Notes: a model not told the origin generated them from the sequence alone. A stretch of DNA of 64,000 nucleotides from an uncultured Gammaproteobacteria bacterium (GCA_964609775.1 CAZSSJ010000001.1:22858-86857), one strand, 5' to 3'. Shown: positions 38,720 through 59,410, numbered from the stretch's first letter. Made by a program: numbers and translations.

Positions 38720-39004
38720 TCAGGTTGCTATGATGGTTGATTTGCGACCAAAGTCGTCTTGCCAGATTTTGAGTTTTTGCCCTTTCGGATAGTGTGTCGT
38801 CACATCATTTCTTGAGTCTGGATATAGTTGGCTGACATTAAATCCTTCGCCTGGTGCCAGGGAAATGATTTCAAGTGGACTTTGTGCATCGGAAGATAAT
38901 TCCCACTTTTTTTCTCCTTGAGACAGTTCCCGGGGAAAACGGAATTTGGGTAACAGGCCTCCTTCTGGATGCCAAAAATTGTCATACTCTATCTTACAGG
39001 TCAT
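38720..39004 (-). CDS. Small ORFan protein (94 aa) whose ATG directly abuts the conserved GA-leader
   Basis: Start codon immediately follows ...TTGACAAATTAAGC(AG)6AATAAGGCT. Confidence 0.5.
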   Translation of the reverse strand: MTCKIEYDNFWHPEGGLLPKFRFPRELSQGEKKWELSSDAQSPLEIISLAPGEGFNVSQLYPDSRNDVTTHYPKGQKLKIWQDDFGRKSTIIAT

Positions 39005-39080
39005 AGCCTTATTCTCTCTCTCTCTGCTTAATTTGTCAAGCTACGCTTGACAAAACCAGCCCCGGCGTTTTTTGTCGAGT
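39005..39080. promoter_or_regulatory. Conserved bidirectional leader/promoter element (copy a): rc TTGACA-AATTAAGC-(AG)6-AATAAGG-ATG for the minus gene, plus the palindrome TTGTCAAGCtacGCTTGACAA.
   Basis: Read directly; paralogous elements at 40292, 41474, 43345, 44375, 47105, 48878 and 59345. Confidence 0.7.
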
Positions 39081-39116
39081 TTGGGAGGGGCGGGTGAGCC
39101 TGATTTATGGTAAAAT

Positions 39117-39389
39117 ATGCTTATGCTTAACTGGTCCACTGACGAAAAAGCCTTCAAGAAAAAAGACCCTAAGGGCTACAAATTGTGGAGGTTAACTCAG
39201 CTCATAAACTTCGGTCTTGACGGGGAAAAACTGTCGGAAAAAGAAGTCAGAAAAGCCTGGCCGAAGATCAAGGACAGGCTCGATCCCTACAAGGGCCGTT
39301 TGCTGGAGTTTCTTATATGGGGAAAACAATACTCACTCCCAAACAATATCAGTTTCTGGAACTGGCCGCTGCCGACCCAAAAATCGTAG
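39117..39389 (+). CDS. Small conserved partner protein (paralog of 38312..38608)
   Basis: About 45% identity to the other copy; overlaps the downstream NTase gene by 72 nt. Confidence 0.55.
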   Translation: MLMLNWSTDEKAFKKKDPKGYKLWRLTQLINFGLDGEKLSEKEVRKAWPKIKDRLDPYKGRLLEFLIWGKQYSLPNNISFWNWPLPTQKS

Positions 39390-39991
39390 CGAATTTCTAT
39401 CTCACTGGCGGCACGGCTCTGTCAGAATTTTATCTCCACCACCGCCTCTCTGAAGACATCGATCTTTTTTGCCCGAAAGAAGAAGTCGATCAAAAATTCG
39501 TAGAAATTTTCCTCAAAAAAATCTCACCAAAGATGGCAATCCAATATCTCCGCCCGACCGTATTCTTGGGTCTTGTCAGTTACAAATTGGTCTTCACGGA
39601 CAAAACAGAATTGAAAGTAGATTTTAACTATTACCCTTTCCTCCAAATCGATAGTGGTACCAAATTTAATAATCTGAGTGTCGACAGCCTTTATGATATT
39701 GCGGCAAACAAACTGCACACTCTTTTTATGAGACCACGATCGCGCGATTACGTGGATCTTTATTTTATTCTCCAGCAAGAAAATTATCCGTTAGAAAAGC
39801 TGATAATCGACGCCAAAATCAAGTTCGACTGGCACATTGATAACACGACTCTCGCCAGTCAATTCTCAAGAGTGCAAGATTTAGTTTCAACCGATTTACC
39901 AAAAATGCTCGTTCCTTTTGATCAAGAAAAGATGGAAAAATTTTTTCTTGATCTGGCGAAATCGCTCAAAGGAAAGATATTTAAAGAGTGA
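39317..39991 (+). CDS. AbiEii/AbiGii-like nucleotidyltransferase (second copy)
   Basis: FYLTGGTALSEFYLHHRLSEDIDLF motif. Confidence 0.7.
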   Translation: MGKTILTPKQYQFLELAAADPKIVANFYLTGGTALSEFYLHHRLSEDIDLFCPKEEVDQKFVEIFLKKISPKMAIQYLRPTVFLGLVSYKLVFTDKTELKVDFNYYPFLQIDSGTKFNNLSVDSLYDIAANKLHTLFMRPRSRDYVDLYFILQQENYPLEKLIIDAKIKFDWHIDNTTLASQFSRVQDLVSTDLPKMLVPFDQEKMEKFFLDLAKSLKGKIFKE

Positions 39992-40045
39992 GCAGGGTTG
40001 GGGCAAATTGCTTCGGAAAGCAGGGGCAGGTGGCTGACAGACACC

Positions 40046-40291
40046 TTAATAATTATCAAGAATTTTTTTGGCCTTTATTTTTCGTTTTTCTGCTTCTGGA
40101 CTGATTTTTAATTTTTGGTCGAATGGCGCTTTTTGGTAGTAGGGATGGCTGTATTTTGGAGTTTTGCTAAATTTCTCTGGCACGTTCTTCCAGCCACATG
40201 TAAGAAGTACTCTCGTCGCTGGACGCGGTTTGATTGGTTTTATTAAGTGAAGAGATTGTTCAGACACCCCTTCAGACACCCCTTCAGACAC
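40046..40291 (-). CDS. Small ORFan (81 aa, GTG start) behind GA-leader copy b. The start is ambiguous: an ATG 2 nt upstream, in another frame, would give only a 16-aa peptide.
   Basis: The leader ...(AG)12AATAAAC is followed by an ATG overlapping the GTG; the N-terminus contains the tandem SEGV repeat. Confidence 0.35.
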   Translation of the reverse strand: MSEGVSEGVSEQSLHLIKPIKPRPATRVLLTCGWKNVPEKFSKTPKYSHPYYQKAPFDQKLKISPEAEKRKIKAKKILDNY

Positions 40292-40345
40292 ATGTTTATT
40301 CTCTCTCTCTCTCTCTCTCTCTGCTTAATTTGTCAAGTTGGGACT
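40292..40345. promoter_or_regulatory. GA-leader copy b, with (CT)12 on the plus strand
   Basis: gtttatt(ct)12gcttaatttgtcaag. Confidence 0.7.
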
Positions 40346-40410
40346 GGCTGGGAATCGGAGGAAGGAAATCGCATCTTGACATCATTGCATCTTGATGAGA
40401 AAATGTGGGT

Positions 40411-40665
40411 ATGAACACAGTCAGAACGACGATTTCGCTGGAGGCGGATTTACACCGGCAAGTTTTGGCACAGGCCAACAACCTGGGCTTGTCCATGAGC
40501 GAAGTTGTTAACAAGCGACTGATGAATCCTAACTTCGGGAAGAGCCGGGCCCAGATTGAGGAAAAAATTGCTGAGGACCGGCGCTTTTTCAGGCAGTTGT
40601 CTCACAAGGGAAGAAAAGTTGATTTAGTTAAGGCTTTGAGAGAGGACCGGGACCGTGACAGTTGA
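40411..40665 (+). CDS. vapB: VapB-type ribbon-helix-helix antitoxin. The ORF is open from GTG at 40405.
   Basis: N-terminal TISLEADLHRQV... RHH motif; own TTGACA-17-GAAAAT promoter directly upstream; overlaps vapC by 11 nt. Confidence 0.7.
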   Translation: MNTVRTTISLEADLHRQVLAQANNLGLSMSEVVNKRLMNPNFGKSRAQIEEKIAEDRRFFRQLSHKGRKVDLVKALREDRDRDS

Positions 40666-41074
40666 CAGGTTTGTCATTGACGCCAGCGTGGTTTTGGAAT
40701 GGGTGGAAACGAAAGAGTCGCCTCAAAAACAGAGGGCGCTTGGTCTCTATGAGCGGCTGGTGAAAGGTGAGGTGGCTTTTTCGGCGCCTTCATTTCTTCT
40801 GGTTGAGGTCATTAATGTGCTTTATTGGAAGAAAAGAAACACGGTTGAGGAGATCAGAGACTTTGTTGACCGGGTCAAGACTTCGGGGATTAATTTTGTT
40901 GACGGCGCGTTTTCAGCTGACGCCAGTGATGAGCTTCTGGATGCAGTTGGAAAGCATGAGATTACAGCCTATGACGCACAGTATGTGATTCTGGCAAAGA
41001 AGCTGGGAGTGAAGCTCCTGACGTTTGATGAGAAGTTGTTGGGGATTAAAGAAGTGGGTGCGGGGGAATGGTAG
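40655..41074 (+). CDS. vapC: PIN-domain toxin VapC
   Basis: FVIDASVVLEW..., YDAQYVILA acidic-residue pattern; 139 aa. Confidence 0.75.
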   Translation: MTVDRFVIDASVVLEWVETKESPQKQRALGLYERLVKGEVAFSAPSFLLVEVINVLYWKKRNTVEEIRDFVDRVKTSGINFVDGAFSADASDELLDAVGKHEITAYDAQYVILAKKLGVKLLTFDEKLLGIKEVGAGEW

Positions 41075-41080
41075 AGAGAC

Positions 41081-41473
41081 CTACCATATTTCCTGTGGTC
41101 CATATTCCTGGTCGAAATCTTTTTGAGCTAAGCGAACATATTTCTCTTCGGTAATCTGCCAAGAGGTGCCGTCTCCCTTTGGATCCCATTCGGTGCGTAA
41201 TAGAACAGTGTTTGGTGTGCGGGTTTTCCAGCGAGATTCGCGAATGTCCGGCCTTTTTGTTCGAACCGCTTCATCATATTCATCGTATTTTCGACCCGTT
41301 AGTCCTATTCTTTCTTGAGCTAATCGACGGCCTTCTTCAGTCCAAGGACGAAATTCAATTCTCCTTCCTTGTTGGCCAGGTCCAAAACCAAGATTTGGAT
41401 GGAGAAAATAATCAAGTTCTATTTTATCCTGCTCAAATAGAGCTTGTGTCTCCGGCGATTGATTTACGGACAT
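41081..41473 (-). CDS. Small ORFan (130 aa) behind GA-leader copy c; intact paralog of the pseudogene at 48494..48877.
   Basis: ATG abuts ...TTGACTTTTTAGGAAG(AG)6AATAAGGCC; shares GRRLAQERIGLTGRKY...RTEWDPKGD with 48494..48877. Confidence 0.55.
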   Translation of the reverse strand: MSVNQSPETQALFEQDKIELDYFLHPNLGFGPGQQGRRIEFRPWTEEGRRLAQERIGLTGRKYDEYDEAVRTKRPDIRESRWKTRTPNTVLLRTEWDPKGDGTSWQITEEKYVRLAQKDFDQEYGPQEIW

Positions 41474-41560
41474 GGCCTTATTCTCTCTCTCTCTTCCTAA
41501 AAAGTCAAATTTGGTTGGGCCGGAAAAGTGGTCGTGTCTTATTTATGCGATCGCATTTTT
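41474..41560. promoter_or_regulatory. GA-leader copy c (variant TTGACTTTTTAGGAAG) plus a partial GCGATCGC palindrome
   Basis: ggccttatt(ct)6tcctaaaaagtcaaa ... ttatgcgatcgcatttt. Confidence 0.65.
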
Positions 41561-41646
41561 AAGAAGTCAGTTGGTTGATAAGAGAAGATAGGATAAATTG
41601 ACATTATTAATTGATTCGACTATAATCGAAAAGAGGCATAAAACAT

Positions 41647-42234
41647 ATGAAGAAAATCGAACTCATTTGGCGGGAGATTCTAGAGAACGGACAGAAAGAT
41701 CCCGTTTTTGAACAGAAGGAGCTGGCGTCAAGACTGGGATTGTCCACGAGCACGGTTTTTGCGGCGCTTGAGCCATTGAGAGCAATTGGAGCGGTAACGG
41801 TTGGCGGCCGGGGGTTTCGGTTGACTAATTTTTCCAAAGTGCTCTTCTTTTGGGCGACGCATCGAAATTTGGCCAAAGATATCGTTTACAAAACGAGGGT
41901 TGATCTGCCAATGGTCGAAATTGAGGGCCTGGTTGACAACGAAACGATTTACGGGGCATATAGTGCCGGCCGCAGGCTTCTGGGGCAGGCTCCGGCTGAC
42001 TATGACAAAGTCTATCTTTATGCCTCAAAAACAGACAATTTGATCAGGAGATTTCCGAGGGCGGGGGGGGCAGCCAACGTTTTTGTCCTGCAGGCTGATC
42101 CGGGCTTGCCGGCTTTTGGCAAAATGACCCCGGTGTCGCAGACGTTTGTTGATTTGTGGAATTTGCCGGACTGGTTTGCGCAGGATTTTTTGGAGGCTTT
42201 AAAGGAGAAATTTTATGGCGGATTATTATCATGA
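41647..42234 (+). CDS. wHTH DNA-binding protein, putative antitoxin/regulator of the downstream NTase
   Basis: N-terminal KELASRLGLSTSTVFAALEPLRAIGAV wHTH; overlaps the next gene by 20 nt. Confidence 0.5.
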   Translation: MKKIELIWREILENGQKDPVFEQKELASRLGLSTSTVFAALEPLRAIGAVTVGGRGFRLTNFSKVLFFWATHRNLAKDIVYKTRVDLPMVEIEGLVDNETIYGAYSAGRRLLGQAPADYDKVYLYASKTDNLIRRFPRAGGAANVFVLQADPGLPAFGKMTPVSQTFVDLWNLPDWFAQDFLEALKEKFYGGLLS

Positions 42235-42826
42235 TTTAGTGACTGACAAGAGTTGGAAGACTTTGCAGGAACTTAAGAGCCAGGTGGATTTTGTGCTCAT
42301 CGGCGGGTGGGCGGTTTATTTATATACAAAAGCTTTGAAGTCGAAAGACATTGACATTATTGTCAATTTTGACCAACTGGACAGATTAAGGAGTCAATTT
42401 GAGGTCGTCAAAAATGAGCGGTTGAAGAAATATGAAGCGAGGCGCGAGGAAGTCCAGATTGATGTCTATTTGCCGCACTTCAGCGAAATTGGAGTGCCCA
42501 TTGAGGAGGTTGTCAAAAGGGTCGTTTCCCGGGAGACGTTTGTGGTTCCGGTGCCGGAGGCGCTTCTCATTTTGAAGCAGTTTATTTTGGGGCAGAGGGG
42601 GCTGTCGGCCAAGGGCCAAAAAGACCGACTGGACATCTTGTCGATCCTCCTTTCGGTTGAGGTGAACTTTAGGGAATATCGCAAATTAACGCAGGCGTGG
42701 GGCTTGACTTCTTTTCCTTCGGAGCTGGCGGAACTTGTTTCGACAACGGTCAGAATTCCGGAGCTATCGGTTGATGAGTATCAATGGTCGAAGGTGAAAA
42801 AGAAGGTTTTGAACTTGGTGGCTTAG
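42215..42826 (+). CDS. Minimal nucleotidyltransferase-fold protein (AbiEii/MNT-like putative toxin)
   Basis: VDFVLIGGWAVYLY...SKDIDIIV (GG...DID NTase motif). Confidence 0.55.
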   Translation: MADYYHDLVTDKSWKTLQELKSQVDFVLIGGWAVYLYTKALKSKDIDIIVNFDQLDRLRSQFEVVKNERLKKYEARREEVQIDVYLPHFSEIGVPIEEVVKRVVSRETFVVPVPEALLILKQFILGQRGLSAKGQKDRLDILSILLSVEVNFREYRKLTQAWGLTSFPSELAELVSTTVRIPELSVDEYQWSKVKKKVLNLVA

Positions 42827-42888
42827 CGTCGGGTTTTTAGTTGTCTCCCGTGTTTAGATTTGTGGTCCGAGAGCTTGAGAATATGACA

Positions 42889-43344
42889 TTAGTTTTGAGG
42901 TTGGAGCATTTTGATGAGACTGCCTAGTCTTGCTGCTTGATCTTCGCCGATCGTTGATGCAGTCTGGGCTGCACCGAGGAATTCTTCACGTAGAAATTGT
43001 CTTTCAGGGTTCCTTCCTAGGGCTACTGCGTCCTTTCCCTCTGCTGAGGCCGCGCTTTCGAGCCATTTTGCCTGGTCTATTTTCAGATAATTTATTGCTT
43101 TTTGCCTGGCAGCCGGGTCGTTGTTTTTTAATCCCGTGGCAATCTGTTCGATTACTGCGCGGCCAGCTTCGTACATGGCCCGGATTTCCCCTTGATCATC
43201 GCCCCAACCCTCGCCTGCTTTTTCAGCCGCCTCAAGCTCATGCTCAAAGTAGGTTATCGGATTAGCGTAGATTTCGTTCGATTCGGCTTCGTACCAATGA
43301 GGGAATCTGCCAGTTTGAGTTGTTTTTTCTGTTCTGTCAGCCAT
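42889..43344 (-). CDS. Small ORFan (about 151 aa from ATG at 43344; the frame is open from TTG at 43359) behind GA-leader copy d
   Basis: This is the only copy with an SD-like GGAGGT between the (AG)n tract and the ATG. Confidence 0.5.
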   Translation of the reverse strand: MADRTEKTTQTGRFPHWYEAESNEIYANPITYFEHELEAAEKAGEGWGDDQGEIRAMYEAGRAVIEQIATGLKNNDPAARQKAINYLKIDQAKWLESAASAEGKDAVALGRNPERQFLREEFLGAAQTASTIGEDQAARLGSLIKMLQPQN

Positions 43345-43400
43345 TTGAATTACCTCCAAGGTCTATTGTCTCTCTCTCTCTTCCTAAAAAGTCAAATTTT
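43345..43400. promoter_or_regulatory. GA-leader copy d (TTGACTTTTTAGGAAG(AG)6 variant with an added SD)
   Basis: ttgaattacctccaaggtctattg(tc)6ttcctaaaaagtcaaa. Confidence 0.65.
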
Positions 43401-43440
43401 GGCTTTGCGTTTTGGCTACGAAGTTGATATACTCTGAGAA

Positions 43441-43716
43441 ATGCAAACTACGCTTCTTAACTACCGAATCATTGTTGAGCCCGACAGCCAAACTGGAACA
43501 GGCAAGCTTGGATACACAGCCTATGCACCCACCTTGGGAGTGGCTGATGATGGAAAGACAATTGAAGAGGCAATTAAAAATGTTCGGGGCGCAATTGAAG
43601 CATTTGTGGAAAGTTTGATCGTTGATGGGCAACCAGTGCCAACAGACCGAGTGGAGCAAGATCTTGTGGCGACGGCACAAATTTCGGTTAACGGCCCGGT
43701 TCAATTCGCTTTTTAA
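43441..43716 (+). CDS. hicB: HicB-family antitoxin (UPF0150)
   Basis: YRIIVEPDSQTGTGKLGYTAYAPTLGVADDGKTIEEAIKNVRGAIEAF pattern. Confidence 0.7.
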   Translation: MQTTLLNYRIIVEPDSQTGTGKLGYTAYAPTLGVADDGKTIEEAIKNVRGAIEAFVESLIVDGQPVPTDRVEQDLVATAQISVNGPVQFAF

Positions 43717-43937
43717 TGCCTGAGATTCCTCAAATTAAACCTCGGAATGTGGAAAAAGTGCTACTGAAAAGAGGTTTTGTCGGCCGGACAACAAAAAGCA
43801 GTCATGTTGTTTTTGTTCATAAGGATGGCAGGCGCACAGTTGTTCCGGTTCACAATAAACCGGTGAGCACAGGAACTCTTCGGGCAATCCTTCGCCAGGC
43901 AAAGATTTCCGTGGAGGAGTTTTTGGAGGAAGTTTAA
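43716..43937 (+). CDS. hicA: HicA-family mRNA interferase toxin
   Basis: KPRNVEKVLLKRGF...SSHVVFVHKDGRRTVVPVHNK...GTLRAILRQAKIS; 73 aa. Confidence 0.75.
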   Translation: MPEIPQIKPRNVEKVLLKRGFVGRTTKSSHVVFVHKDGRRTVVPVHNKPVSTGTLRAILRQAKISVEEFLEEV

Positions 43938-44374
43938 TTGGGAGATGGGGTTTCTGGTGGACTTGAGAACTTTTCTAGTTGTTTTGCTAGAGCCCTGAAA
44001 CCTGACAAAAACCATGTCTCGCCTTCATCCTCACTTTTTTTTGGTTCGAGACCGTACTCTTCAGACATTGCGTTGACAACTCCTGAGAAGTCGTTCAGGG
44101 TCTGAGCAGTTCTGAGGGCGTCTTGCCACAACTGTATACCTTGTTCCGCTGCCGCATACATTGCTGGGTCGTCTTGTGGATCTACACGGTTCCTGATTAT
44201 TAGCTCATTATTGAGTCTTGTTTGGGCGAGCAGAATTGCATCCTGCCGAGCTTTTCGGTCGGATACCGATTTTCCAACATATCTGTTTCTAAACTCAGCT
44301 GGTAGTCTGTTTTCCAGAACTGCCCAAGCTTTCCTGGGATTAAAGTTCTCTTCAACATTATTTTTTTCTGACAT
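43934..44374 (-). CDS. Small ORFan (146 aa) behind GA-leader copy e
   Basis: ATG abuts ...(AG)10AATAAAACAA. Confidence 0.5.
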   Translation of the reverse strand: MSEKNNVEENFNPRKAWAVLENRLPAEFRNRYVGKSVSDRKARQDAILLAQTRLNNELIIRNRVDPQDDPAMYAAAEQGIQLWQDALRTAQTLNDFSGVVNAMSEEYGLEPKKSEDEGETWFLSGFRALAKQLEKFSSPPETPSPN

Positions 44375-44500
44375 TTGTTTTATTCTCTCTCTCTCTCTCT
44401 CTCTCTGCTTAATTTGTCAAGCTTGGACAATCCAGAATGGCCCAGGAGAATTTTAGGGAAAATGTTCGATGTTTTGTGATCGCGTTTTATGGAACAAAAT
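44375..44500. promoter_or_regulatory. GA-leader copy e ((CT)10) plus the GTTCGAT-GTGATCGC-ATGGAAC palindrome
   Basis: Read directly. Confidence 0.7.
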
Positions 44501-44577
44501 GTTGGGTGGGAGAACGGCGTGGATTTTGTGTCAATCTGGACGAGAGGTTTCTTGGGGCAGTAGCAGTGGTGGGGATG

Positions 44578-45612
44578 TCAGAGAAGTTTTTCCTGGCCGG
44601 CACTGACTGGCGGGGTTTTGCCGAGGTGGAAATAGGCAGCCGGAGTGGTCATCCGGCCGCGGGGGGTACGTTTGACAAAACCGATCTGCATCAGATAGGG
44701 TTCGACAACTTCTTGAAGGGTGCCGATGTCTTCAGAAAGAGTGGCGGCAAGGGTTTCCAGGCCAACCGGGCCGCCACCGAATTTGTCGATGATGGCCAGG
44801 AGAAAGCGGCGGTCGGAGTCGTCGAGGCCCAGAGGATCAACTTCCAGAATGTCCAAAGCCCTGGTGAGCATTTCGGAGGTGACGGTGCCGGTGCCATGGA
44901 CTTGAGAATAGTCGCGGACCCGTTTCAGGAGCTTGAGGGCAATTCGGGGAGTGCCCCGGGCGCGCTTGGCCAGCTCCAGAGCAGCCCCTTGGGCAATGGG
45001 CAGATCAAGCTTCACCGCGGCTTTCTTAGCAATTTCCGTCAAGTCTTCCGGACTATAAAAAGAGAGCCGGTGGGTGATGCCGAAACGGTCGCGAAGAGGG
45101 GCGGAGATTAAGCCAATGCGGGTCGTGGCGCCGACGATGGTGATGTGGGGAAGTTCCAGGCGAAGGGTTCGGGCGGAGGGACCCTTACCCACGACAATGT
45201 CGAGGGCGAAGTCCTCCATGGCCGGATAGAGCGTCTCTTCAACAACTTTGCTCAGGCGGTGAATTTCGTCAATGAAAAGAATGTCGCCCGGTTCGAGATT
45301 GGTGAGGATTGAGGCCAGATCACCGGCCCGTTCGATGGCCGGTCCGGAGGTGACGCGAATGTTGGTGCCCATTTCCCGGGCAATTAAATGGGAAAGGGTG
45401 GTTTTTCCCAAGCCCGGAGGTCCGTAGAGCAGAGTGTGCTCCATGGGTTCGGAGCGTTTTTTGGCGGCGGAAAGGCCGATTTGAAGAGATTGCTTGACTT
45501 TCTCCTGGCCGATGAATTCATCCCAGGCGGCAGCCCGAAGGGAGTTGAAAAGTTTTTCCTCGTCGGGACTTTTTTCGCTGAGGTCTTTAGATCCTGGATC
45601 GGCTTTTTTCAT
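44578..45612 (-). CDS. ruvB: Holliday junction helicase RuvB
   Basis: [22 protein letters not shown]...[10 protein letters not shown]...; 344 aa. Confidence 0.9.
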
Positions 45613-46181
45613 TTGAGTTTAGAGAGAGATTTTAAAGCAAAACGGATCTGGTCTTCAATGGCGATTGTTTCCGGGGGAAGGTTTTTGGTTGCTTGCCGGG
45701 CTTCGGAAGGTGAATAGCCCATGGATTCTAAAGCGTCGAGAAGTTCGGAAGTGGCGGAACCGCCCGTGAGATCGAGGTCGGAAAGGCTGCCCAGTTTGGA
45801 TTTTAATTCAATGATGATTTTCTGAGCGTTTTTTTTGCCCAGGCGGGGGACAAGGGTGAAGAAAGTCTCATCGGCTTTAATGATGGCCTGTTTAACCGGA
45901 TCAACACCTTTGTCCAGGACAAGGAGAGCGGTCCGTGGGCCAATCCCGGAGACACTAAGAAGCATTTTAAAGAGGTTTAAACCTTCGGTGTTTGGGAAGC
46001 CAAAGAGGTCAAGGGCGTCTTCGCGGACGTGGGTGTGAATGTGCAGGTCAAGCGGCTCGCCAAGGGAAAGCCTTGAGAGAATTGAGGAGGGAAGAAAGAC
46101 ATGATAGCCCACGCCGCCAACCAGAAGAGTGACAGAATCAAAGTTTTTTTGTTTAACCGAGCCTTGAAGAAAACTGATCAT
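45609..46181 (-). CDS. ruvA: Holliday junction DNA helicase subunit RuvA
   Basis: MISFLQG......GVGY.V......L.......L..H..VRED...LFGF; HhH motifs [13 protein letters not shown]. Confidence 0.85.
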
Positions 46182-46185
46182 TGAT

Positions 46186-46262
46186 TAATTTGAAATTTGA
46201 AATTTTAAATTTGAAATCAATTTTCAATTTAAAATGTTTCAATTTCAAAACCAGACATTTTT
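46186..46262. repeat. AT-rich ATTTGAAATTTGAAA-type repeat spacer between ruvA and ruvC
   Basis: ttaatttgaaatttgaaattttaaatttgaaatcaattttcaatttaaaatgtttcaatttcaaaa; same family as 4910..5036. Confidence 0.75.
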
Positions 46263-46274
46263 AAAACCCGTACA

Positions 46275-46763
46275 TTATTTTTGAGCGAGGCGCATTTTGT
46301 AACTAAATGAATGAGTGATGGCGACGGCCAGAGCGTCGGCGGCGTCGTCGGGCCTCGGAACGGTCTTTAAATTCAGAACTGATTTTACCATCATTTGGAT
46401 CTGATATTTATCGGCCCGGCCGTAGCCTGTCAGAGCCTGTTTAATTTGAAGAGGGGTGTAGGAATGGAGAGACAGACTTTTGAGTTGGGCGCAGAGGAGA
46501 ACAATGCCGCGAGACTGGCCGACAGCCAGAGCGGTTTTGGCGTTGGCGGCAAAAAATAGCTCCTCGACAGCCAGGGTGTGGGGGTGATGGGTGGTGATGA
46601 GTTTTTCCAGAAAGCGAAAAATGATTTCCAGACGCTCCTCTTCGGGGAGGTGGGCGGCGGTTTCCTGACAGCCGAAATCGATGAGATCAAGCCTGCCTTG
46701 ATCATCTTTAATGAGCCCCCAACCGAGGCGGGCAAAACCGGGATCAATGCCCAAAATTTTCAT
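46275..46763 (-). CDS. ruvC: Crossover junction endodeoxyribonuclease RuvC
   Basis: MKILGIDPGFARLGWGLI...AVEELFF..N..TAL.VGQSRG; 162 aa. Confidence 0.85.
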   Translation of the reverse strand: MKILGIDPGFARLGWGLIKDDQGRLDLIDFGCQETAAHLPEEERLEIIFRFLEKLITTHHPHTLAVEELFFAANAKTALAVGQSRGIVLLCAQLKSLSLHSYTPLQIKQALTGYGRADKYQIQMMVKSVLNLKTVPRPDDAADALAVAITHSFSYKMRLAQK

Positions 46764-46825
46764 AGGGCTATTATATGTCAGTTTGCAGGAAAGACCGGGC
46801 GACGGGATGAAGCAGAAGAAGTGGC

Positions 46826-47104
46826 TTAAGTTTTTAAGCAGTTGGCGTTTTGCTGGAGGGTCCTCTCACTTATTCTTGAGATTGAAGATAGGCTAGCTCC
46901 CCCTTCCGTGCTGCCGAATCCCCCACAAGAGATTGCTTCAGGACTGGTTTCCTTAAATAGGGGGCAGCTTAGGCAGTATCTTCGGAACAGCTCTGACGGA
47001 CCGAAGAATTCAGGGTCTTCATAGGACACTATTAGCAGAAAGCCGGCATAGTCACTGGTCGGGGAGTATCGTATTGTTGCTTCAGGCTGCTCGACTTCTA
47101 ACAT
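46826..47104 (-). CDS. Small ORFan (92 aa) behind GA-leader copy f
   Basis: ATG abuts ...(AG)6AATAAAGGCC. Confidence 0.45.
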   Translation of the reverse strand: MLEVEQPEATIRYSPTSDYAGFLLIVSYEDPEFFGPSELFRRYCLSCPLFKETSPEAISCGGFGSTEGGASLSSISRISERTLQQNANCLKT

Positions 47105-47210
47105 GGCCTTTATTCTCTCTCTCTCTGCTTAATTTGTCAAGTTGGGACAGTTCAATGAGTCTTTGGGGAAATGTTCCATGGAATGCGATCGCGTTTTATG
47201 GAACAGGGGG
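47105..47210. promoter_or_regulatory. GA-leader copy f ((CT)6) plus the perfect-arm palindrome GTTCCATggaatGCGATCGCgttttATGGAAC
   Basis: Read directly. Confidence 0.7.
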
Positions 47211-47291
47211 TTGATTTTTGACGGCAGTCAAAATTTGTATTGGGAACAAAATCTTATATAATCTAATATAGTCGCTATATGAGATTTAACT

Positions 47292-48365: not shown

Positions 48366-48414
48366 TCCCCTCGTGTTAGACTGATTGGGGTTCGAGTTTT
48401 GAATGAAAGCTTGG

Positions 48415-48488
48415 GGTGAGGCTTCTGATTTTTGATGAGAAGTTGTTGGGGATTAGGGATGTGACTGTGGAGAAGCTCCCGGATTGAT
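48415..48488 (+). pseudogene. 3' remnant of a second vapC (…LLIFDEKLLGIRDVTVEKLPD*)
   Basis: Matches the VapC C-terminus …LLTFDEKLLGIKEVGAGEW at 41020..41074. Confidence 0.55.
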
Positions 48489-48493
48489 CAGAG

Positions 48494-48877
48494 CTATTTA
48501 GGTTCGTGGCGGGAATATTCTTCCTCGAAGTCTTCAGGTGGGAGCCGGACATATCTTTCTTCTTTCGTCGGCCAAGTGTCGTCTCCTTTTGGATCCCATT
48601 CTGTCCGTCGCAGGACCACGTTTGGGGTGCAGGTTTCCAGAACAGACTTGCGGGCGAGGCCAAATTCTTGGTCAAAAGTTACTTCCTGGTATTTTCGGCC
48701 GGTTAGACCTATTCTTTCTTGGGCAAGTTGACGCCCTTCCGAAGTGTGAGGAGTAAAGTCCACCCACTTGCCTGCTTGGGTAGGTCCAAGTCCTAGCTCG
48801 GCGGTTAGGAACTATTCCAGGCGACCTTTGTCGTCTTTAATTTGTTGTTCATTTCTTTCTTGAGAGATTGCAGACAT
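48494..48877 (-). pseudogene. Paralog of 41081..41473 interrupted by an in-frame TAG (Tyr codon to stop) 21 codons after the leader-adjacent ATG
   Basis: MSAISQERNEQQIKDDKGRLE-TAG-FLTAELGLGPTQAGKWVDFTPH… is collinear with MSVNQSPETQALFEQDKIELDYFLHPNLGFGP…; TAG is a bona fide stop elsewhere in the window. Confidence 0.55.
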
Positions 48878-50262: not shown

Positions 50263-50299
50263 GTTTTAGTTATTGAGTGTTTATATTAAAATAATTGGT

Positions 50300-53257: not shown

Positions 53258-53301
53258 TGGGGATTAATGTCAGTCGAGTTTAAGGCAGAAAGCCTTGGTT
53301 G

Positions 53302-54333
53302 TCAATCTAAGATTTCTTCATCCGGTTCGTTAGCCTGTTTTTGGAGTAGAGGGAAATCGACAGTGGTGACGGCGTTTTTCGTGATGGGAAAGAGACCGGG
53401 ACTCACAGCAATGAAACCCTTGGGGGCCGAGGGGGACCACTTCTTCAAAAGTAGCTGCTTCCCACTTTTGCAGTAGAAATAGTTATTGCCAGTGGGGATT
53501 TTGACCGGGCGGTTGATGCCGGCACAGGTCTCAAATTTAAAGCCTGCCGGGATGAGCGGTTTTTTAATTTTATAGTCGCCGGTAGGAATTTCCCCAAAAG
53601 AGTAGTTTTCTTTGCCGGTGTTTTTTCCGGAATCAAGGATGGCGACTAGTGTGTTTGCGCCAGAGTCGACTTTAGTCAGAGTTAAACTGGCTTTTTTGAC
53701 CGAGGGTTCGACGGACTCGGCGTTTTTTCTGGCGTTGTGGTCGGTTTCGTCGTCATGCCAGATGTAGCCTGTCAGGGGGCCTTTGTCCGAGGCGGTTTGG
53801 ATTTTTTCGACCTGGATTTCGCAGGTGGAGTTGTTTTGAGCGGAGGGGTACCAGAGACTCGCGTTAGTGCCGCAGGTAGTTTTAGAGACCTTCCAATTCG
53901 AGGGAAGGTTAGTGCTGCCGGTTTCAGGGCAACTCGTACAAAGAGTGATTTGGTAGCCGGCGCCAGTTGTTGAGTCAGACCAGGTGGCACAGCCGGCGCC
54001 GTTGCAGGCGGAAGGACTGTAGGTTTGGACACGGCCTTTTTGGCAGACCGGGTCGGAGCAGGAGGCGTTGCAGCCGGTTGGACAAGCGGACATGAAGGTG
54101 GCGCGGACACTCACTTGGCTGGGGTATTTCTGGCCAGTGGCCCGGTCTTTTATTTTAATCGTCAGCGGGTTTCCGAAGGGTGGTGGCGGGGGGGGCGGGG
54201 GGGGGGGGGGGGGGCGGGCTTTGCTCGTAGCCGGAACAAAGCAAGGGAGCCGTGTTGCTGCAGTAGGAGTTGTAGTCCGAATAGGCAGGCTTGATGAGTC
54301 CGGAAGTGAGGCAAGTTTTGACGTCCGGAACAC
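53302..54333 (-). CDS. C-terminal Cys-rich/Ig-like portion of the metallopeptidase gene. It overlaps 54155..55594 out of frame across a poly-C tract and probably belongs to the same gene.
   Basis: N-terminus PPPPPPPPPPPP is encoded by the same G/C homopolymer that encodes the PPPPPPPAPP C-terminus of the upstream ORF. Confidence 0.5.
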   Translation of the reverse strand: MFRTSKLASLPDSSSLPIRTTTPTAATRLPCFVPATSKARPPPPPPPPPPPPFGNPLTIKIKDRATGQKYPSQVSVRATFMSACPTGCNASCSDPVCQKGRVQTYSPSACNGAGCATWSDSTTGAGYQITLCTSCPETGSTNLPSNWKVSKTTCGTNASLWYPSAQNNSTCEIQVEKIQTASDKGPLTGYIWHDDETDHNARKNAESVEPSVKKASLTLTKVDSGANTLVAILDSGKNTGKENYSFGEIPTGDYKIKKPLIPAGFKFETCAGINRPVKIPTGNNYFYCKSGKQLLLKKWSPSAPKGFIAVSPGLFPITKNAVTTVDFPLLQKQANEPDEEILD

Positions 54334-55594
54334 ACCAGTTGGTGGTCCAGACGTAAGAGGAATCTCCGATCATGGGAGTCCCCGAGGGAATTGGGGCGAA
54401 GAGATTGATGGCGCCACGCATGGCGGGCTCGTCAACGGGGTCAAGGTGATAACCGGATTCTGACCAGAGTGTCTCCATAATGCAGCTGCCAGAGGTGGAT
54501 TTGTAACGGTTGGTGTAGGTGCAGATGGTGTAGCAGTTTGTTCCGGGGATTCCTGACCATTTGCCACAAGCAGAAGAGGTATCACAGTTTGCGTGAATGT
54601 TTCGGTTGGGGTTGGTTTCAATTTTGTTGTAATCATATTCATCATTTAAGTTTCCGATGCCATGACCTAATTCATGATAGAGGGTAAGTCCGGGAAAAGG
54701 CAGATTTGATTGTGATCGTGACATGAGGGCATACTTGATTGGCGGATAATAGGACCAGCCAATCTTGTCGTCGATGCCTTCAAGAATAACAATGAAGTCG
54801 TAGTTGGTTTGGGAAGCGATGTTGTAGATTAAAGCACTGTCGCAATCAAGATTTTCAGCGTTATTAAAACTGTTACACAAGATTTGATCGTTGTGGATTT
54901 TCGCGAATCTGATTTTTGATCGATATTCGTTCCAAGGTGACTGAGCCAGGAGGAAGTTAGTCATACTGCTAACGTCCGCATCAAATAGGTCAAAGTCGGA
55001 ATAGCGGTCGCTTATAAAGGTAAGGTCAAGGTAACCGTCAGAGGAAAGACCCGACTGGGGAGCCGGAGTGTTAGATGACTTGACAACATAACTTTTTTTA
55101 AGGATTGCCGATTGAATCTTTAGGCTGTCTAAGACTTGGGTCTTTTTTGGCTGGCTATGGCGAATTTGGATTGTAGCGCCCGTTTGGTAAGGGAAAGAGA
55201 TTACCACTCGGGGCTCGGAAAAAATCTTATCCTGTCTATTGATTTGTTTTTTTTCAGAAGCGAAAGTTTCGATGGCGAGACTGTCAGTAAATTTAATGCT
55301 TGCTTTCCAGGTGGTTTTTCCGTTTAAAACTTGTTCGATTTCATCAGTTTCACTGTCAGTTTTTTGGTTTGGCAAGTAGGGGGTATAGCCATTGTTGGCG
55401 AGGGCTTTTTGAATGGAGATTTTGCCGGTGGTGGGGTTTTTGGTTAAGACGAGGATGAGGTTGGTGTCTGCTTTGAGGCCAGTAGCTTTGTCTTGGAGAC
55501 GGGTTTGTTGGGTGACAATAAATAGAGTTGCACCTAGGAGGGGGAGGAGGAGAAGGACGAGAGTGAGGCTGAGGGTGGCGGCACCTTTTTTCAT
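54155..55594 (-). CDS. Secreted zinc metallopeptidase (HEXXH; M64/IgA-peptidase-like)
   Basis: Signal peptide; LYHELGHGIGNLNDEYDY (HExxH...DEY); C-terminal poly-Pro. Confidence 0.6.
   Translation of the reverse strand: MKKGAATLSLTLVLLLLPLLGATLFIVTQQTRLQDKATGLKADTNLILVLTKNPTTGKISIQKALANNGYTPYLPNQKTDSETDEIEQVLNGKTTWKASIKFTDSLAIETFASEKKQINRQDKIFSEPRVVISFPYQTGATIQIRHSQPKKTQVLDSLKIQSAILKKSYVVKSSNTPAPQSGLSSDGYLDLTFISDRYSDFDLFDADVSSMTNFLLAQSPWNEYRSKIRFAKIHNDQILCNSFNNAENLDCDSALIYNIASQTNYDFIVILEGIDDKIGWSYYPPIKYALMSRSQSNLPFPGLTLYHELGHGIGNLNDEYDYNKIETNPNRNIHANCDTSSACGKWSGIPGTNCYTICTYTNRYKSTSGSCIMETLWSESGYHLDPVDEPAMRGAINLFAPIPSGTPMIGDSSYVWTTNWCVPDVKTCLTSGLIKPAYSDYNSYCSNTAPLLCSGYEQSPPPPPPPAPPATTLRKPADD
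54186..54222. repeat. About 37-nt G-rich homopolymeric tract (poly-C on the coding strand) at the junction between the two peptidase ORFs
   Basis: ggtggcggggggggcggggggggggggggggggcgggc. Confidence 0.9.
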
Positions 55595-55805: not shown

Positions 55806-56408
55806 ATGGATCAGGAAAATTGGGGGAATCAGGGAGATCAGTTTAAGAAAGCGGGCTACCAGTATCTGTTGGCTTGGAAAATAACTGTTCCCATTTATGA
55901 TTACACTGTCATTTTTTGCAGGAAGTATCGCAGATTGCTCTCTTCTGAGCGGACTTATGACCAGATGGTGCAGGCGGCCAGAAGCGGGACACAAAATGTT
56001 CCGGAGGGAAATCAACAGGCAAGTCTTGAAGGCTACATCAAATTGACTGGTGTTAACAAAGCCTCATTGGAGGAACTATTGAGGGATTTCCTGGCGTTTG
56101 CCAGACAGAATCAGATTCCAATTTGGTCAAAGGAAAGGTGTGTCAGGGAAATTAGGGAAATTGGGGAGATCTGGGGGATTCTTAAAAATAATAAAACGCT
56201 CCCTGACGATCCCAATTTCCCGAATTTCCCTGACAAATTGGAGATCGGCGTCAATTTAATGATAACATTGGTCCATCAAGCAATTTTTCTTCAAGGGAAA
56301 TTAAAGGAGTCTTTGGAGAAAAAGTTCATCGAGGAAGGTGGTTTTAGAGAGAACTTGTTTAGAAAGAGAATGGACTGGCGAAGGAGGCAGAATGGACAGG
56401 AAGTATGA
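55806..56408 (+). CDS. Four-helix-bundle protein (TIGR02436-like, '23S rRNA intervening sequence protein' family). Tentative.
   Basis: YDQMVQAARSGTQNVPEG resembles the ..Q..RAa.Si..NIAEG signature; 200 aa. Confidence 0.4.
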   Translation: MDQENWGNQGDQFKKAGYQYLLAWKITVPIYDYTVIFCRKYRRLLSSERTYDQMVQAARSGTQNVPEGNQQASLEGYIKLTGVNKASLEELLRDFLAFARQNQIPIWSKERCVREIREIGEIWGILKNNKTLPDDPNFPNFPDKLEIGVNLMITLVHQAIFLQGKLKESLEKKFIEEGGFRENLFRKRMDWRRRQNGQEV

Positions 56409-58977
56409 ACCGGCAGAGATAGAGAAGAAGTGGCCCTCCTTCGCCAAGGCTTCGGACGGGCAAGCAGGACGTTATAACCATCGGGAGATTGAGCATAAGT
56501 GGCAGGAGGTGTGGGAAAAAGAGAAACTATATCTAACTCCAAAACCTGATGCCGAGCATCCGAAGAGATACATTTTGGATATGTTTCCCTACCCGTCGGG
56601 GGCGGGACTTCATGTTGGGCATATGGAAGGCTACGTGGCCACGGATGTTATTGTCAGATACCTGCGGATGAAGGGGCTTTCGGTTCTTCACCCGATGGGC
56701 TGGGACGCGTTTGGCCTGCCGGCCGAGAATTATGCGATTAAAGAAGGAATTGCCCCTGATAAGTCGACGCACGAGAATATCAAGAATTTTAAGTATCAGC
56801 TTCAACTTTTGGGACTGTCTTATGATTGGTCCAAAGAAATAGATACATCTAGCCCGAAGTATTACAAATGGACACAGTGGTTGTTTACGCTGCTGTTTAA
56901 AAAGGGCTTAGCCTATAAAAAGAAAGCGCCGGCGAATTGGTGCCCCAAGGACGAAACGGTGCTGGCCAACGAGCAGGTGGTTGATGGGAAATGCGAACGG
57001 TGCGGGACGGCGGTAGTGCAAAAGGAATTGGAGCAGTGGTTTTTTAAGATTACGGATTATGCGGATAAGCTGATTTCCGGTCTGGACAAAGTCGATTGGC
57101 CGGAATCGACCAAGACGCAGCAGGTTAACTGGATTGGGAAGAAAGAGGGCATCGAAATTACTTATGAGGTGGTAGGTGTTCCTGACGAAATTACTGTTTT
57201 TACGACTGCTCCGGTTAACTTTGGGATGACCTTTTTGGTTTTAGGACCAGAACACCATTTCGTCCAGAAAATTATTTCTGGTGAAATTAAGATTTCTTCT
57301 GAGACTCAAAAAGAAGTTAAGGATTATGTTGAGGCGGCGGGTAAAAAGACAGAACTGGAGAGGATCGCTGCGGGTAGGGAGAAGACAGGGGTGTTTACCA
57401 CTTTATATGCAATTAACTCCATTAATGGTAAAAAAGTGCCGATTTATGTGACTGATTTTGTTTTAGGGCATGTGGGTACTGGTGCGGTTCAAGGTTGCCC
57501 GGCGCATGATCTTAAAGACTTTCAGTTTGCAAAGAAGTTTAACTTGCCGATCGTTAGAGTTGTTGAGGGTCCCGATGGTGATGCTGGACCGGTAGAGAGA
57601 GAAGATCAGATTATTGAAAAGGGAATGCGGGGTACATTTATTAATTCAGAGTTTTTGAACGGCTTGAGTTTTGAGGGAGGACTGCAAAAGACGATGGACT
57701 ATTTTGTTGAAAAAGGCGTTGGTAGGAGGGTGGTGACCTATCACATTCGGGATTGGCTGATTTCGAGGCAGAGATATTGGGGGTGCCCGATCCCGATGGT
57801 GTTTTGCGAAAAAGACAGCTGGCAGCCTGTTCCTGATTCAGAACTACCTATTTTGTTACCAACTGATATAGATTTTCGACCGACCGGGGAATCACCGATT
57901 GCCAGATCAGGGTCTTTCCAAAAAGGGGTAAGGTGCCCGGTTTGCGGGGAGGCAGCCAAGCGGGAGGTAGACACCATGGACACTTACGTCGACTCCTCAT
58001 GGTATTTTTACCGCTTTGTAGATCCGGATAATAACAAAAAATTCGCTTCGAAGAAGGCTCTCGAAACATGGATGCCGGTGGACATTTATGTTGGCGGCGG
58101 GCATGTGGTCCAGCACCTGCTGTTTGCCCGATTCTTCCACAAAGTTCTCGTCGATGCAGGATATATTAAGGGTGATGGCGCTGGTGAGCCTTTCCTAAAG
58201 CTTAGAGCGCCGGGATGGATTTTGGGCCCGGACTCTCGCAAGATGAGCAAGCGCTGGGCGAACGTTATCACTCCGGAGGAAGTGGTTGCCAAACATGGAG
58301 CGGACACGATGCGGATGTATGAGATGTTTATGGCGCCGTTTGAAGTCGATAAACCGTGGAATGTCAACTCGGTGGCTGGGGTGCAGCGCTTTTTGAGCCG
58401 AATTTACGGTTTGTTTGAAAGATCTTATCAGTTGAAGGACGCAGTTGCTGGCGAAGCAATGGCTCGTGAGATTAATAAATTGGTTTTTAAGGTCGGCAAA
58501 GATATTGAGGGTTTCAAGTTCAATACGGCAGTGGCTGCCATGATGGAGTTTGTGAATCAGGTACAGGCAGGATTGAAGACGAAGGAGCAGGGTGAAGGAA
58601 GCTACACCTGGAGAGTGGTTTGGGAGAAGTTTCTGACCGTTTTGGCGCCGTTTGCGCCGCATTTGGCGGAGGAGCTGTGGTCCCACTTCGCCAAGGCTTC
58701 GCGGGACAAGCATGGATATGTTTCTGTCCATCAGCAGTCGTGGCCGGAGGTTGATGAGAAATATCTGGGCCAGGAAAGCAGGACGATCGTGGTGTCGATT
58801 AATGGCAAGGCGAGAGCGACATTGAAAATGAGCAATGGGCAATCCTCAATGAGCAATAGCCAGGAGGAGGTTGAGAAGTTGGCGAGAGGAGATCAGAATG
58901 TGGCGAAGTGGCTGGAAGGGAAAGAGGTTAAGAAAGTGGTCTACGTACCAGGCAAGATTGTCAACTTCGTCGTTTAA
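56392..58977 (+). CDS. leuS: Leucyl-tRNA synthetase. The ORF is open from 56338; ATG at 56392 is preceded by GGAGG.
   Basis: HVGHMEGY (HIGH) and KMSKRWAN (KMSKS) motifs; LeuRS-type editing and anticodon-binding regions; 862 aa. Confidence 0.9.
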   Translation: MDRKYEPAEIEKKWPSFAKASDGQAGRYNHREIEHKWQEVWEKEKLYLTPKPDAEHPKRYILDMFPYPSGAGLHVGHMEGYVATDVIVRYLRMKGLSVLHPMGWDAFGLPAENYAIKEGIAPDKSTHENIKNFKYQLQLLGLSYDWSKEIDTSSPKYYKWTQWLFTLLFKKGLAYKKKAPANWCPKDETVLANEQVVDGKCERCGTAVVQKELEQWFFKITDYADKLISGLDKVDWPESTKTQQVNWIGKKEGIEITYEVVGVPDEITVFTTAPVNFGMTFLVLGPEHHFVQKIISGEIKISSETQKEVKDYVEAAGKKTELERIAAGREKTGVFTTLYAINSINGKKVPIYVTDFVLGHVGTGAVQGCPAHDLKDFQFAKKFNLPIVRVVEGPDGDAGPVEREDQIIEKGMRGTFINSEFLNGLSFEGGLQKTMDYFVEKGVGRRVVTYHIRDWLISRQRYWGCPIPMVFCEKDSWQPVPDSELPILLPTDIDFRPTGESPIARSGSFQKGVRCPVCGEAAKREVDTMDTYVDSSWYFYRFVDPDNNKKFASKKALETWMPVDIYVGGGHVVQHLLFARFFHKVLVDAGYIKGDGAGEPFLKLRAPGWILGPDSRKMSKRWANVITPEEVVAKHGADTMRMYEMFMAPFEVDKPWNVNSVAGVQRFLSRIYGLFERSYQLKDAVAGEAMAREINKLVFKVGKDIEGFKFNTAVAAMMEFVNQVQAGLKTKEQGEGSYTWRVVWEKFLTVLAPFAPHLAEELWSHFAKASRDKHGYVSVHQQSWPEVDEKYLGQESRTIVVSINGKARATLKMSNGQSSMSNSQEEVEKLARGDQNVAKWLEGKEVKKVVYVPGKIVNFVV

Positions 58978-59026
58978 CCGTTTTTATCTGTGTAAAATGA
59001 ATTCAGAAGATAATGAGTTAAGATCT

Positions 59027-59344
59027 TTATCCCTTAGGTTTTATTTTGGGCTTCAGATTTGTATCTAAGTTGAGCTTTGAGAGAATTTCGTTTATGCCTT
59101 CGTCTCCTGGATGAAAATGTTTCCAACCATCATCTCGAGTGTATCCTCTCTCAGACCCGGTTCCGCGGCTTGCGAGTCTGATATAGAATACCGTTTCACT
59201 GTTGTCGTATAAAGTTAAACTGCCAGACCAGATTCCATCGCCACCGGCAAAAGCACGACTAGGATCAAGAGCAATCATATCTGCGTGGTTTAAAGAAACA
59301 GTTCTCACGATAGTTGGACGATCTTTTTGGTCTGGATCTTTCAT
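59027..59344 (-). CDS. Small ORFan (105 aa) behind GA-leader copy h
   Basis: ATG abuts ...TTGACAAAAGAAGC(AG)5AATAGGCGAA. Confidence 0.45.
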   Translation of the reverse strand: MKDPDQKDRPTIVRTVSLNHADMIALDPSRAFAGGDGIWSGSLTLYDNSETVFYIRLASRGTGSERGYTRDDGWKHFHPGDEGINEILSKLNLDTNLKPKIKPKG

Positions 59345-59400
59345 TTCGCCTATTCTCTCTCTCTGCTTCTTTTGTCAAGCCCAGCTTGACAAAACTAGCC
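59345..59400. promoter_or_regulatory. GA-leader copy h ((CT)5) plus the palindrome TTGTCAAGCccaGCTTGACAA, between divergent genes
   Basis: Read directly; near-identical to copy a over about 60 nt. Confidence 0.7.
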
Positions 59401-59410
59401 CTGGCGTTAT

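Follow-up and report, generated by a model that had tools for sequence, protein, structure and literature searches.

A stretch of DNA of 64,000 nucleotides (nt) (GCA_964609775.1, CAZSSJ010000001.1:22858-86857), referred to here as the window, was found to carry eight copies of a conserved element, TTGAC(A/T)-N8-(AG)nA-ATA-N5-7-ATG, all on the minus strand and each at the head of a small open reading frame (ORF). With a somewhat better than even chance, the element is a propagated promoter for leaderless mRNAs whose spacer holds an AG repeat, the short forms being in a working state and the expanded forms silenced and slippery. Its geometry supports a sigma-70-type promoter whose spacer contains the repeat and whose transcript would be leaderless, and single genes are probably turned down or shut off through the repeat. 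Exact protein matches assign the host to Candidatus Gottesmanbacteria bacterium RIFCSPHIGHO2_01_FULL (Microgenomates, candidate phyla radiation or CPR) from the Rifle aquifer, which has a second deposit as Microgenomates bacterium GW2011_GWA1_48_10.

The copies were read off the minus strand at 38600-49200 and 58950-60100. A search of the window using the pattern TTGAC-N9-(AG)5A with at most one mismatch returned eight matches, against 0.00 expected from 100 shuffles, and an nhmmer profile search returned exactly the same eight and no cryptic copies in the window. When the full 64 kb were scanned, all (AG) tracts of at least 11 nt fell within elements. A preliminary description of this DNA had placed the eight elements correctly; its AG counts of 5, 6, 6, 6, 6, 10 and 12 plus one interrupted tract were corrected to 5, 6, 6, 6, 6, 11 and 11 plus the interrupted one. 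The modules, lettered a to h, are given below, the higher coordinate of each being the 5' end of its TTGAC.

39005-39039, minus strand: promoter module a; TTGACA, 8 nt, (AG)6A at 39013-39025 (13 nt, 6 AG units), GAGAAT, 6 nt, ATG at 39004; 10/12 sigma-70 match; palindrome TTGTCAAGC-GTA-GCTTGACAA 5' of the module, up to about 39060
40292-40336, minus strand: promoter module b; expanded (AG)11A at 40300-40322 (23 nt, 11 units)
41474-41508, minus strand: promoter module c; variant TTGACT-TTTTAGGA; tract at 41482-41494 (13 nt, 6 units)
43345-43395, minus strand: promoter module d; tract at 43369-43381 (13 nt, 6 units); -10 box GACAAT, then a 24-nt leader with a GGAGG Shine-Dalgarno sequence
44375-44420, minus strand: promoter module e; expanded (AG)11A at 44384-44406 (23 nt, 11 units)
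47105-47140, minus strand: promoter module f; tract at 47114-47126 (13 nt, 6 units)
48878-48912, minus strand: promoter module g; interrupted tract AGAGAGGGAGAGA at 48886-48898 (13 nt, 6 units, broken by one A-to-G change)
59345-59378, minus strand: promoter module h; tract at 59354-59364 (11 nt, 5 units); 15-bp spacer; palindrome TTGTCAAGC-TGG-GCTTGACAA 5' of the module

Copies with a 13-nt tract have the layout TTGACA-17 bp-GAGAAT-6 or 7 nt-ATG, in which 9 of the 17 spacer bases and four bases of the -10 box come from the AG repeat. The -35/-10 distance follows the length of the tract, being 15 bp with 11 nt, 17 bp with 13 nt, and 27 bp in b and e. In a consensus scan, a, c, f, and g matched TTGACA-17-TATAAT at 9-10 of 12 positions, and h, b, and e lay outside the 16-18 bp range. 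The -10 box is separated from the start codon (ATG or GTG) by 6-7 nt in seven of the eight copies, the exception being d. The same layout, free of any repeat, was present at vapB (TTGACA-17-GAAAAT-6-ATG), at phd (TTGACA-17-TACGAT-6-ATG), at a helix-turn-helix (HTH) gene (TTGACA-17-TATAAT, 41598-41626) and at ruvC (TATAAT-6-ATG), which indicates that the host uses consensus sigma-70-type promoters and leaderless mRNAs generally. The leaderless-type geometry that the preliminary description had proposed for six AG units, with GAGAAT 17 bp from TTGACA and close to the ATG, matches these repeat-free promoters of the toxin-antitoxin (TA) operons next door.

Similarity among the copies spans from about 10 nt 5' of the -35 box to the start codon, and these limits are those of a core promoter; identical stretches of 28-43 nt are shared between copies that head unrelated ORFs. 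An inverted GTCAA/TTGAC partner lies 2-19 nt 5' of the element in many copies, and the palindrome reported earlier for a and h is present as TTGTCAAGC-N3-GCTTGACAA, perfect over 9 bp. Leadered copies (d, two in contig L034, and L026) have GGAGG-type ribosome-binding sites 3' of the tract, on which ground the AG run was ruled out as a ribosome-binding site. A sigma-H-like AGGA...GAAT reading of the TTTTTAGGA variant was also rejected, because the spacing is about 11 rather than 17-18 nt and most copies have AAGC rather than AGGA. No known RNA element was detected in the window using Rfam at the gathering threshold and a tRNA scan.

The sequence between the -10 box and the start codon differs among copies. 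An AT-rich ATAAACA is common to all three long-tract copies (40292-40300, 44375-44384, and contig L013 at about 6100-6112), and most short-tract copies of the host genome have ATAAGGCC at this place, the others having ATAGGC or ATACCC.

The ORFs behind the modules, with lengths in amino acids (aa), are as follows.

38720-39004, minus strand: ORF a, 94 aa; predicted leaderless; no family match
40046-40291, minus strand: ORF b, 81 aa; GTG start
41081-41473, minus strand: ORF c, 130 aa; paralogue of g
42889-43344, minus strand: ORF d, 151 aa; strict orphan, matching only itself among 5.8 billion proteins
43934-44374, minus strand: ORF e, 146 aa; strict orphan
46826-47104, minus strand: ORF f, 92 aa
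48494-48877, minus strand: ORF g; decayed paralogue of c
59027-59344, minus strand: ORF h, 105 aa; in a cassette between leuS and comEA/comEC

The earlier statement that the ORFs start exactly at the element was upheld for seven of the eight copies, b with a GTG codon, but not for d with its 24-nt GGAGG leader. Nor are all eight intact: ORF g contains an in-frame TAG at 48812-48814 where its paralogue c has Tyr, and a PIN-gene remnant 3' of it (48407-48470) matches 41000-41063, from which g is taken to be a decaying duplicate of the c-vapC unit. The sole interrupted tract is that of g, the copy with the stop codon and the degraded TA (PIN) neighbour.

No family match was obtained for the small proteins in Pfam, PADLOC, PHROGs or NCBIfam, and searches of billions of proteins for homologues of c, d, and e returned only the protein itself or a paralogue. 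By BLASTP, c and g form the sole paralogue pair among the small window proteins, in agreement with the preliminary description. The proteins encoded behind all distinct copies, in the host and in other species, are hydrophilic (median grand average of hydropathy, -0.72) and lack membrane segments, and an AlphaFold model of e was all-helical at low confidence (predicted local distance difference test score, 55). The c/g pair gave a dN/dS of about 0.26 at a dS of about 1.6, and an orthologue pair from two other species (L004 and L019) gave a pN of 0.30 against a pS of 0.80; judged by these substitution patterns, the small ORFs are real genes. Chance open frames of 81-151 codons placed exactly at a predicted transcription start would moreover be very unlikely. 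All of the roughly 26 distinct copies collected from the host and other species (~26/~26) head ORFs of 31-151 aa, which separates the element from a generic housekeeping promoter, the alternative named in the preliminary description, and marks a class of small accessory genes. At the 5' end of ORF b, a perfect 12-nt in-frame tandem repeat of 2.8 copies (GTGTCTGAAGGG on the coding strand, 40259-40291) was also noted; its copy number is constant in 10 assemblies.

Tract lengths were tallied from consensus assemblies. The assemblies compared were independent, came from the same population and were 99.5-100% identical over 2.9-14 kb; contigs L028 and L049, which diverge part-way from the reference, were treated as possible chimeras and left uninterpreted. 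The following lengths were recorded.

Locus a: 13 nt in 6 assemblies
Locus b: 23 nt (7 assemblies), 21 nt, 27 nt
Locus c: 13 nt (5 assemblies) and one variant
Locus d: 13 nt in 8 assemblies
Locus e: 23 nt (6 assemblies), 25 nt (2 assemblies)
Locus f: 13 nt in 3 assemblies
Locus g: interrupted 13 nt, identical in 13 assemblies
Locus h: 11 nt in 6 assemblies
Long locus beside fpg (contig L013): 25, 27, 29, and 29 nt
Two L013 neighbours of the long fpg-side locus: constant at 13 and 11 nt

All indels between assemblies were located within the element and consisted of tract-length changes, each a multiple of 2 nt, plus a 2-bp -35 deletion in locus c of contig L041. Non-modal alleles accounted for 6 of 21 observations at long tracts versus 1 of 48 at short tracts (Fisher p = 0.0025). 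Long tracts are hypermutable, and this variation between assemblies is the tract-length polymorphism that the preliminary description had proposed to look for. In L041, a tract at c longer by 2 nt is combined with a 2-bp deletion inside TTGAC, these being the only differences in 7 kb; the pair of indels keeps TTG 17 bp from GAGAAT, as selection on spacing predicts, and the spacing does seem to be under selection. Tract lengths are bimodal (9-13 versus 21-29 nt), with no dominant alleles of 15-19 nt, and no long alleles occurred at short-tract loci across the assemblies. Helical phasing was considered and discarded: 13 and 23 nt differ by one DNA turn, but the alleles of 21, 25, 27, and 29 nt do not fit.

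A search for the leader beyond the window, which the preliminary description had suggested, was productive in the host and in its relatives. The A2721_ locus tags of the window genome (GCA_001780905.1) also appear on contigs L013, L034, and L017, and other contigs of this genome contributed three copies (L013/L015/L028/L035), three copies (L034/L036) and one copy (L017/L029), giving at least 15 in the host genome (8 in the window and 7 on other contigs). The element was also present in other species, in metagenome-assembled genomes (MAGs) and contigs of 38-46% GC. In the relative L018, Fpg and RecF are only 57-58% identical to those of the host, yet the element stands at the same place beside recF. 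Near-identical promoters thus precede non-homologous genes in more than one genome, as would be expected of a propagated ('mobile') promoter family. The element had no match in a viral contig collection, and a phage origin was ruled out on this basis. The MAGs L001-L006 that carry it bear the title 'uncultured Gammaproteobacteria bacterium'; in their copies of the element, their small genes and their TA-rich surroundings they are similar to Gottesmanbacteria loci, which makes that label doubtful.

In the mechanism proposed, a core-promoter module of about 45 bp would have been copied in front of many unrelated small accessory genes. TTGAC(A/T) would act as the -35 box and the last four tract bases plus AT as the -10 box GAGAAT, and transcription would start at the A or G of the start codon, 6-7 nt past the -10 box, to yield a leaderless mRNA; copy d and a few others would have a short Shine-Dalgarno leader in place of the leaderless start. 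Tract length would set the -35/-10 distance, with the genetically stable short forms (11 and 13 nt) representing the working state. A tract of 21-29 nt would put the -35 box 8-16 bp too far away and leave a weak in-tract GAGAGA at the -35 position, so that the gene would be silent or strongly turned down while the longer repeat slipped often. The predicted outcome is a heritable, gene-by-gene silencing of single cassettes, reversible in principle. Slow lock-off is more probable than fast ON/OFF flipping, given the bimodal distribution of lengths and the absence of short alleles among the long loci.

Several points weigh against this reading. No 11- or 13-nt allele was seen at the three long loci in 21 observations, so that a switch back was unobserved. 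The usual tract in other species is 11 nt, equivalent to a 15-bp spacer, a length that suits E. coli sigma-70 poorly, which means that either 15 bp works here or TTGAC is no simple -35 box, and that a strict '17 = ON' rule oversimplifies. Conservation of the tract and of the AAGC beside it extends to species with saturated synonymous sites and to paralogues at a dS of about 1.6; spacing alone does not require this conservation, which points to an additional sequence-specific role. The long-tract copies with ATAAACA might still fire without a -35 box. Finally, the transcription start, the effect of tract length on expression, reversibility and any adaptive value were all inferred from sequence.

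The preliminary description had proposed promoter phase variation; in the classical form of this, tracts would flip rapidly and reversibly between ON and OFF within populations as an adaptive bet-hedging over the small proteins. This was upheld insofar as the repeat lies in the promoter spacer and is retained across species, and insofar as long tracts are polymorphic, differing between samples by 2-nt steps while almost no point substitutions accumulated; contig L015 also ends 9 nt past a long tract, as within-sample heterogeneity would cause. However, 47 of 48 observations at tracts of 5-6 units showed no change, the long loci are 4-8 units off the ON length and were never seen near it, lengths over all tracts are bimodal, and the proteins are small and cytoplasmic, whereas contingency loci usually have surface or restriction-modification functions. 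Phase variation of this kind is possible but doubtful; reversible ON/OFF switching was not demonstrated, and one-way silencing fits equally well. An equally tentative view is that the AG tract and the AAGC and ATA beside it together form a sequence-specific cis-element (a regulon operator or an extended -10) whose length changes are incidental slippage. It would account for the conservation of spacer sequence where neutral sites are saturated (L004/L019 and c/g), for spacings of 15 and 17 bp that are each the norm in different genomes, for the operator-like inverted GTCAA/TTGAC partner upstream (a perfect 9-bp palindrome in a and h), and for TA promoters of the same genome that do without the tract. 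Yet no candidate regulator was identified, a direct GA repeat would be an unusual operator, and the compensating indel pair in c suggests that distance and not only sequence is under selection; the decayed copy g, which kept its length and lost its purity, is compatible with either model.

Two further explanations are far less probable. The AG run could be transcribed from an upstream promoter and act in the 5' untranslated region as a purine-rich translation enhancer or RNA element, since it directly precedes the start codon and since e and g follow same-strand genes whose read-through transcripts would include it. This is the least credible of the readings: leadered copies use a GGAGG that is 3' of the tract, GAGAG does not pair with the CCUCC anti-Shine-Dalgarno sequence, neither an Rfam match nor an upstream promoter common to all copies was found, and the fixed 6-7 nt from GAGAAT to ATG is a leaderless signature. 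It is also very unlikely that the module is mainly a recombination or attachment site at which small-ORF/TA cassettes are inserted or exchanged integron-style, although the same module precedes unrelated ORFs and no cassettes or elements occur beside ruvCAB in the closest relatives (RuvA 59-65% identical). On contig L013, the last ~33 nt of fpg (TFFCPKCQK-stop) are repeated three times between fpg and recF (5740-5779, 6810-6848, and 7905-7945), each copy closing one small-ORF/TA cassette, and in the related species L018 a single element with a single fpg end occupies this site. This triplication looks like the trace of serial insertion, with target duplication, at the 3' end of fpg, and it supports cassette-like accretion. 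The duplicated junction is nevertheless the fpg 3' end and not the promoter module, and similarity among the copies ends where that of a promoter would. Around the window cassettes, no direct repeats of the ruvB, GH26, leuS, AAA_14 or parE ends were found; Pfam scans of ORFs flanking and within the islands identified no recombinase or IntI, and a comparison made without a dedicated attC model revealed no shared attC-like 3' repeat bounding the window cassettes. The modular cassette arrangement suggested earlier is supported at fpg on L013, but the window has neither such repeats nor a recombinase. An integron was rejected on these scans of the islands, in which no integrase and no attC-like 3' repeats appeared.

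Identities of the neighbouring genes were assigned using Pfam, and they bear out that six of the eight ORFs are divergent from a TA or Fic operon.

39117-39991, plus strand: AbiEi-like/AbiEii pair; divergent from a, convergent with b
40411-41074, plus strand: vapB-vapC (PIN) operon; divergent from b; own predicted leaderless promoter
41647-42826, plus strand: HTH and DUF6036 nucleotidyltransferase pair; divergent from c
43441-43937, plus strand: hicB-hicA; divergent from d, convergent with e
47292-48365, plus strand: Fic protein with a C-terminal winged-helix domain; divergent from f
59504-60036, plus strand: phd-parE/relE-type operon (Phd and a ParE/RelE-superfamily toxin); divergent from h; predicted leaderless promoter

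The small genes are located in TA-rich islands inserted between housekeeping genes, with the layouts GH26, g-fic-f, ruvCAB, e...a, AAA_14; leuS, h-phd-parE, comEA; and fpg, three cassettes, recF. Because the TA genes beside the orthologous small gene of L004 and L019 differ in type and in orientation, the proximity to TA genes looks more like common location than a functional link. A 33-nt inverted repeat (38660-38692 and 49089-49121, 82% complementary), for whose 20-nt core 0.01 chance matches were expected, brackets the entire island from a to g with ruvCAB inside it.

A palindrome family, TGTTCCAT-N5-GCGATCGC-N5-ATGGAACA, often followed by AGGGGGTTGATTTT, was noted 50-60 nt 5' of elements e, f, and g. 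Its sites are at 37629-37670, 44458-44499, 47169-47205, and 48940-48970, with partial sites at 41547-41554 and about 60040-60069, and GCGATCGC occurs six times against 0.9 expected. The palindrome precedes some element copies only and stands once alone between AAA_14 and AbiEii; it could be a terminator-like repeat or one of the repetitive extragenic palindromic type.

A more extended model would be that CPR bacteria of the Gottesmanbacteria lineage possess an integrase-independent or trans-mobilised cassette system, in which ~1-kb units of a TA module and a small orphan accrete one after another at housekeeping 3' ends, as at the triplicated fpg end. Each orphan would come behind the same leaderless promoter, with the AG-repeat spacer serving as an inbuilt mutational switch, making the units individually silenceable contingency cassettes. 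We consider this rather unlikely; if true, it would be the first description of repeat-based phase variation in bacteria that are not host-associated, and in a lineage for which very few regulatory mechanisms are known.

Further features of the window were recorded. A poly-C (proline-coding) tract at 54188-54218 splits one minus-strand gene into overlapping ORFs (54155-55594 and 53302-54333). In other assemblies, the locus holds one undivided ORF (756, 760 or 762 aa) in which the tract sequence differs, and five contigs end at the tract, which is either a second hypervariable repeat of the genome or a homopolymer assembly problem. Two adjacent GH26 glycoside hydrolase genes (49195-53257; 355 and 985 aa) share several segments of 71-87% identity, which indicates a tandem paralogous duplication, and the shorter gene is split in some assemblies. 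Giant ORFs lie on the plus strand at 5946-21923 (5325 aa) and 21951-28067 (2038 aa), and the window shows a strongly positive GC skew throughout. Intergenic heptamer tandem repeats were found, CATCAAT about 14 times and AATTTGA about four times (2548-2644, 4908-4936, and 46187-46249), one of them between ruvC and ruvA. A 44-nt inverted repeat of GGGAAATT-like 9-mers, without an Rfam match, is located at 56141-56235, about 100 nt 5' of leuS, and similar 9-mers occur at 55811-55839 and 63531-63594.

One stereotyped 45-bp promoter offers a handle by which unannotatable small genes can be found and grouped across Microgenomates genomes. Its geometry is evidence, at the level of sequence, that consensus -35/-10 promoters exist and leaderless mRNAs are widespread in a lineage whose gene regulation is almost unknown, and the threefold fpg end gives a hint of how tiny genomes build up TA-rich accessory islands.

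Repeat-controlled promoters are textbook knowledge in Haemophilus, Neisseria, and Mycoplasma; in the literature on the CPR, no report of such promoters or of this element was found. By analogy, the mechanistically closest case is hifA/hifB of H. influenzae, where the -35 and -10 boxes of combined divergent promoters are reportedly separated by a (TA)n repeat and 9-11 units are said to flip around an optimum. Both systems would have a dinucleotide spacer that sets the -35/-10 distance, a divergent intergenic site, and unit-step changes in natural populations. Unlike hifA/hifB, which is one locus for a surface structure in a host-adapted pathogen, the present element occupies at least 15 loci per genome before unrelated cytoplasmic orphans in a free-living or episymbiotic CPR bacterium; its presumed working state of 5-6 units is stable, only expanded alleles vary, and its mRNAs are predicted to be leaderless. 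Phase variation of hifA/hifB is credited to van Ham et al. 1993 (Cell 73:1187), cited as ref. 120 in PMC11868660.

Independent, combinatorial control, as would follow where several genes each have their own copy of a promoter with a mutable spacer tract, is a likeness to the vlp genes of Mycoplasma hyorhinis. There, several vlp genes have a conserved promoter region whose spacer contains a poly(A) tract; the vlp genes are paralogous surface lipoprotein genes with a common signal peptide, whereas the genes here are unrelated and the repeat is a dinucleotide. Homopolymer-spacer promoters are present at opc and fetA of Neisseria too. Repeat length in the promoter spacer would tune expression in the Gottesmanbacteria element as in these genes and in porA, where a homopolymer in the spacer tunes expression in steps (PMC3639595). 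The Neisseria cases differ in being homopolymers at single loci for outer-membrane proteins, in contrast to a dinucleotide at many loci.

The interleaving of small orphans with TA modules, and at one locus a serial accretion with repeated junctions, resembles sedentary integrons. Small orphan genes and TA cassettes abound in chromosomal arrays of that kind. Here, by contrast, IntI and attC were not found and a common Pc promoter is lacking; each cassette has its own promoter, and the junction is the fpg 3' end. Promoter propagation has been described for putative mobile promoters, in which non-homologous genes of one genome have highly similar promoters that also recur in different species (Matus-Garcia et al. 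2012, PMC3488235; PMC3575422). The present element is likewise one promoter before unrelated genes within a genome and also in other species; compared with such general reuse, it is distinguished by an embedded hypermutable repeat, an exact fusion to predicted leaderless starts, and a restriction to small orphans in TA islands. By analogy with these systems, it may be regarded as a combination of a repeat-controlled promoter and promoter propagation, each of which is known separately.

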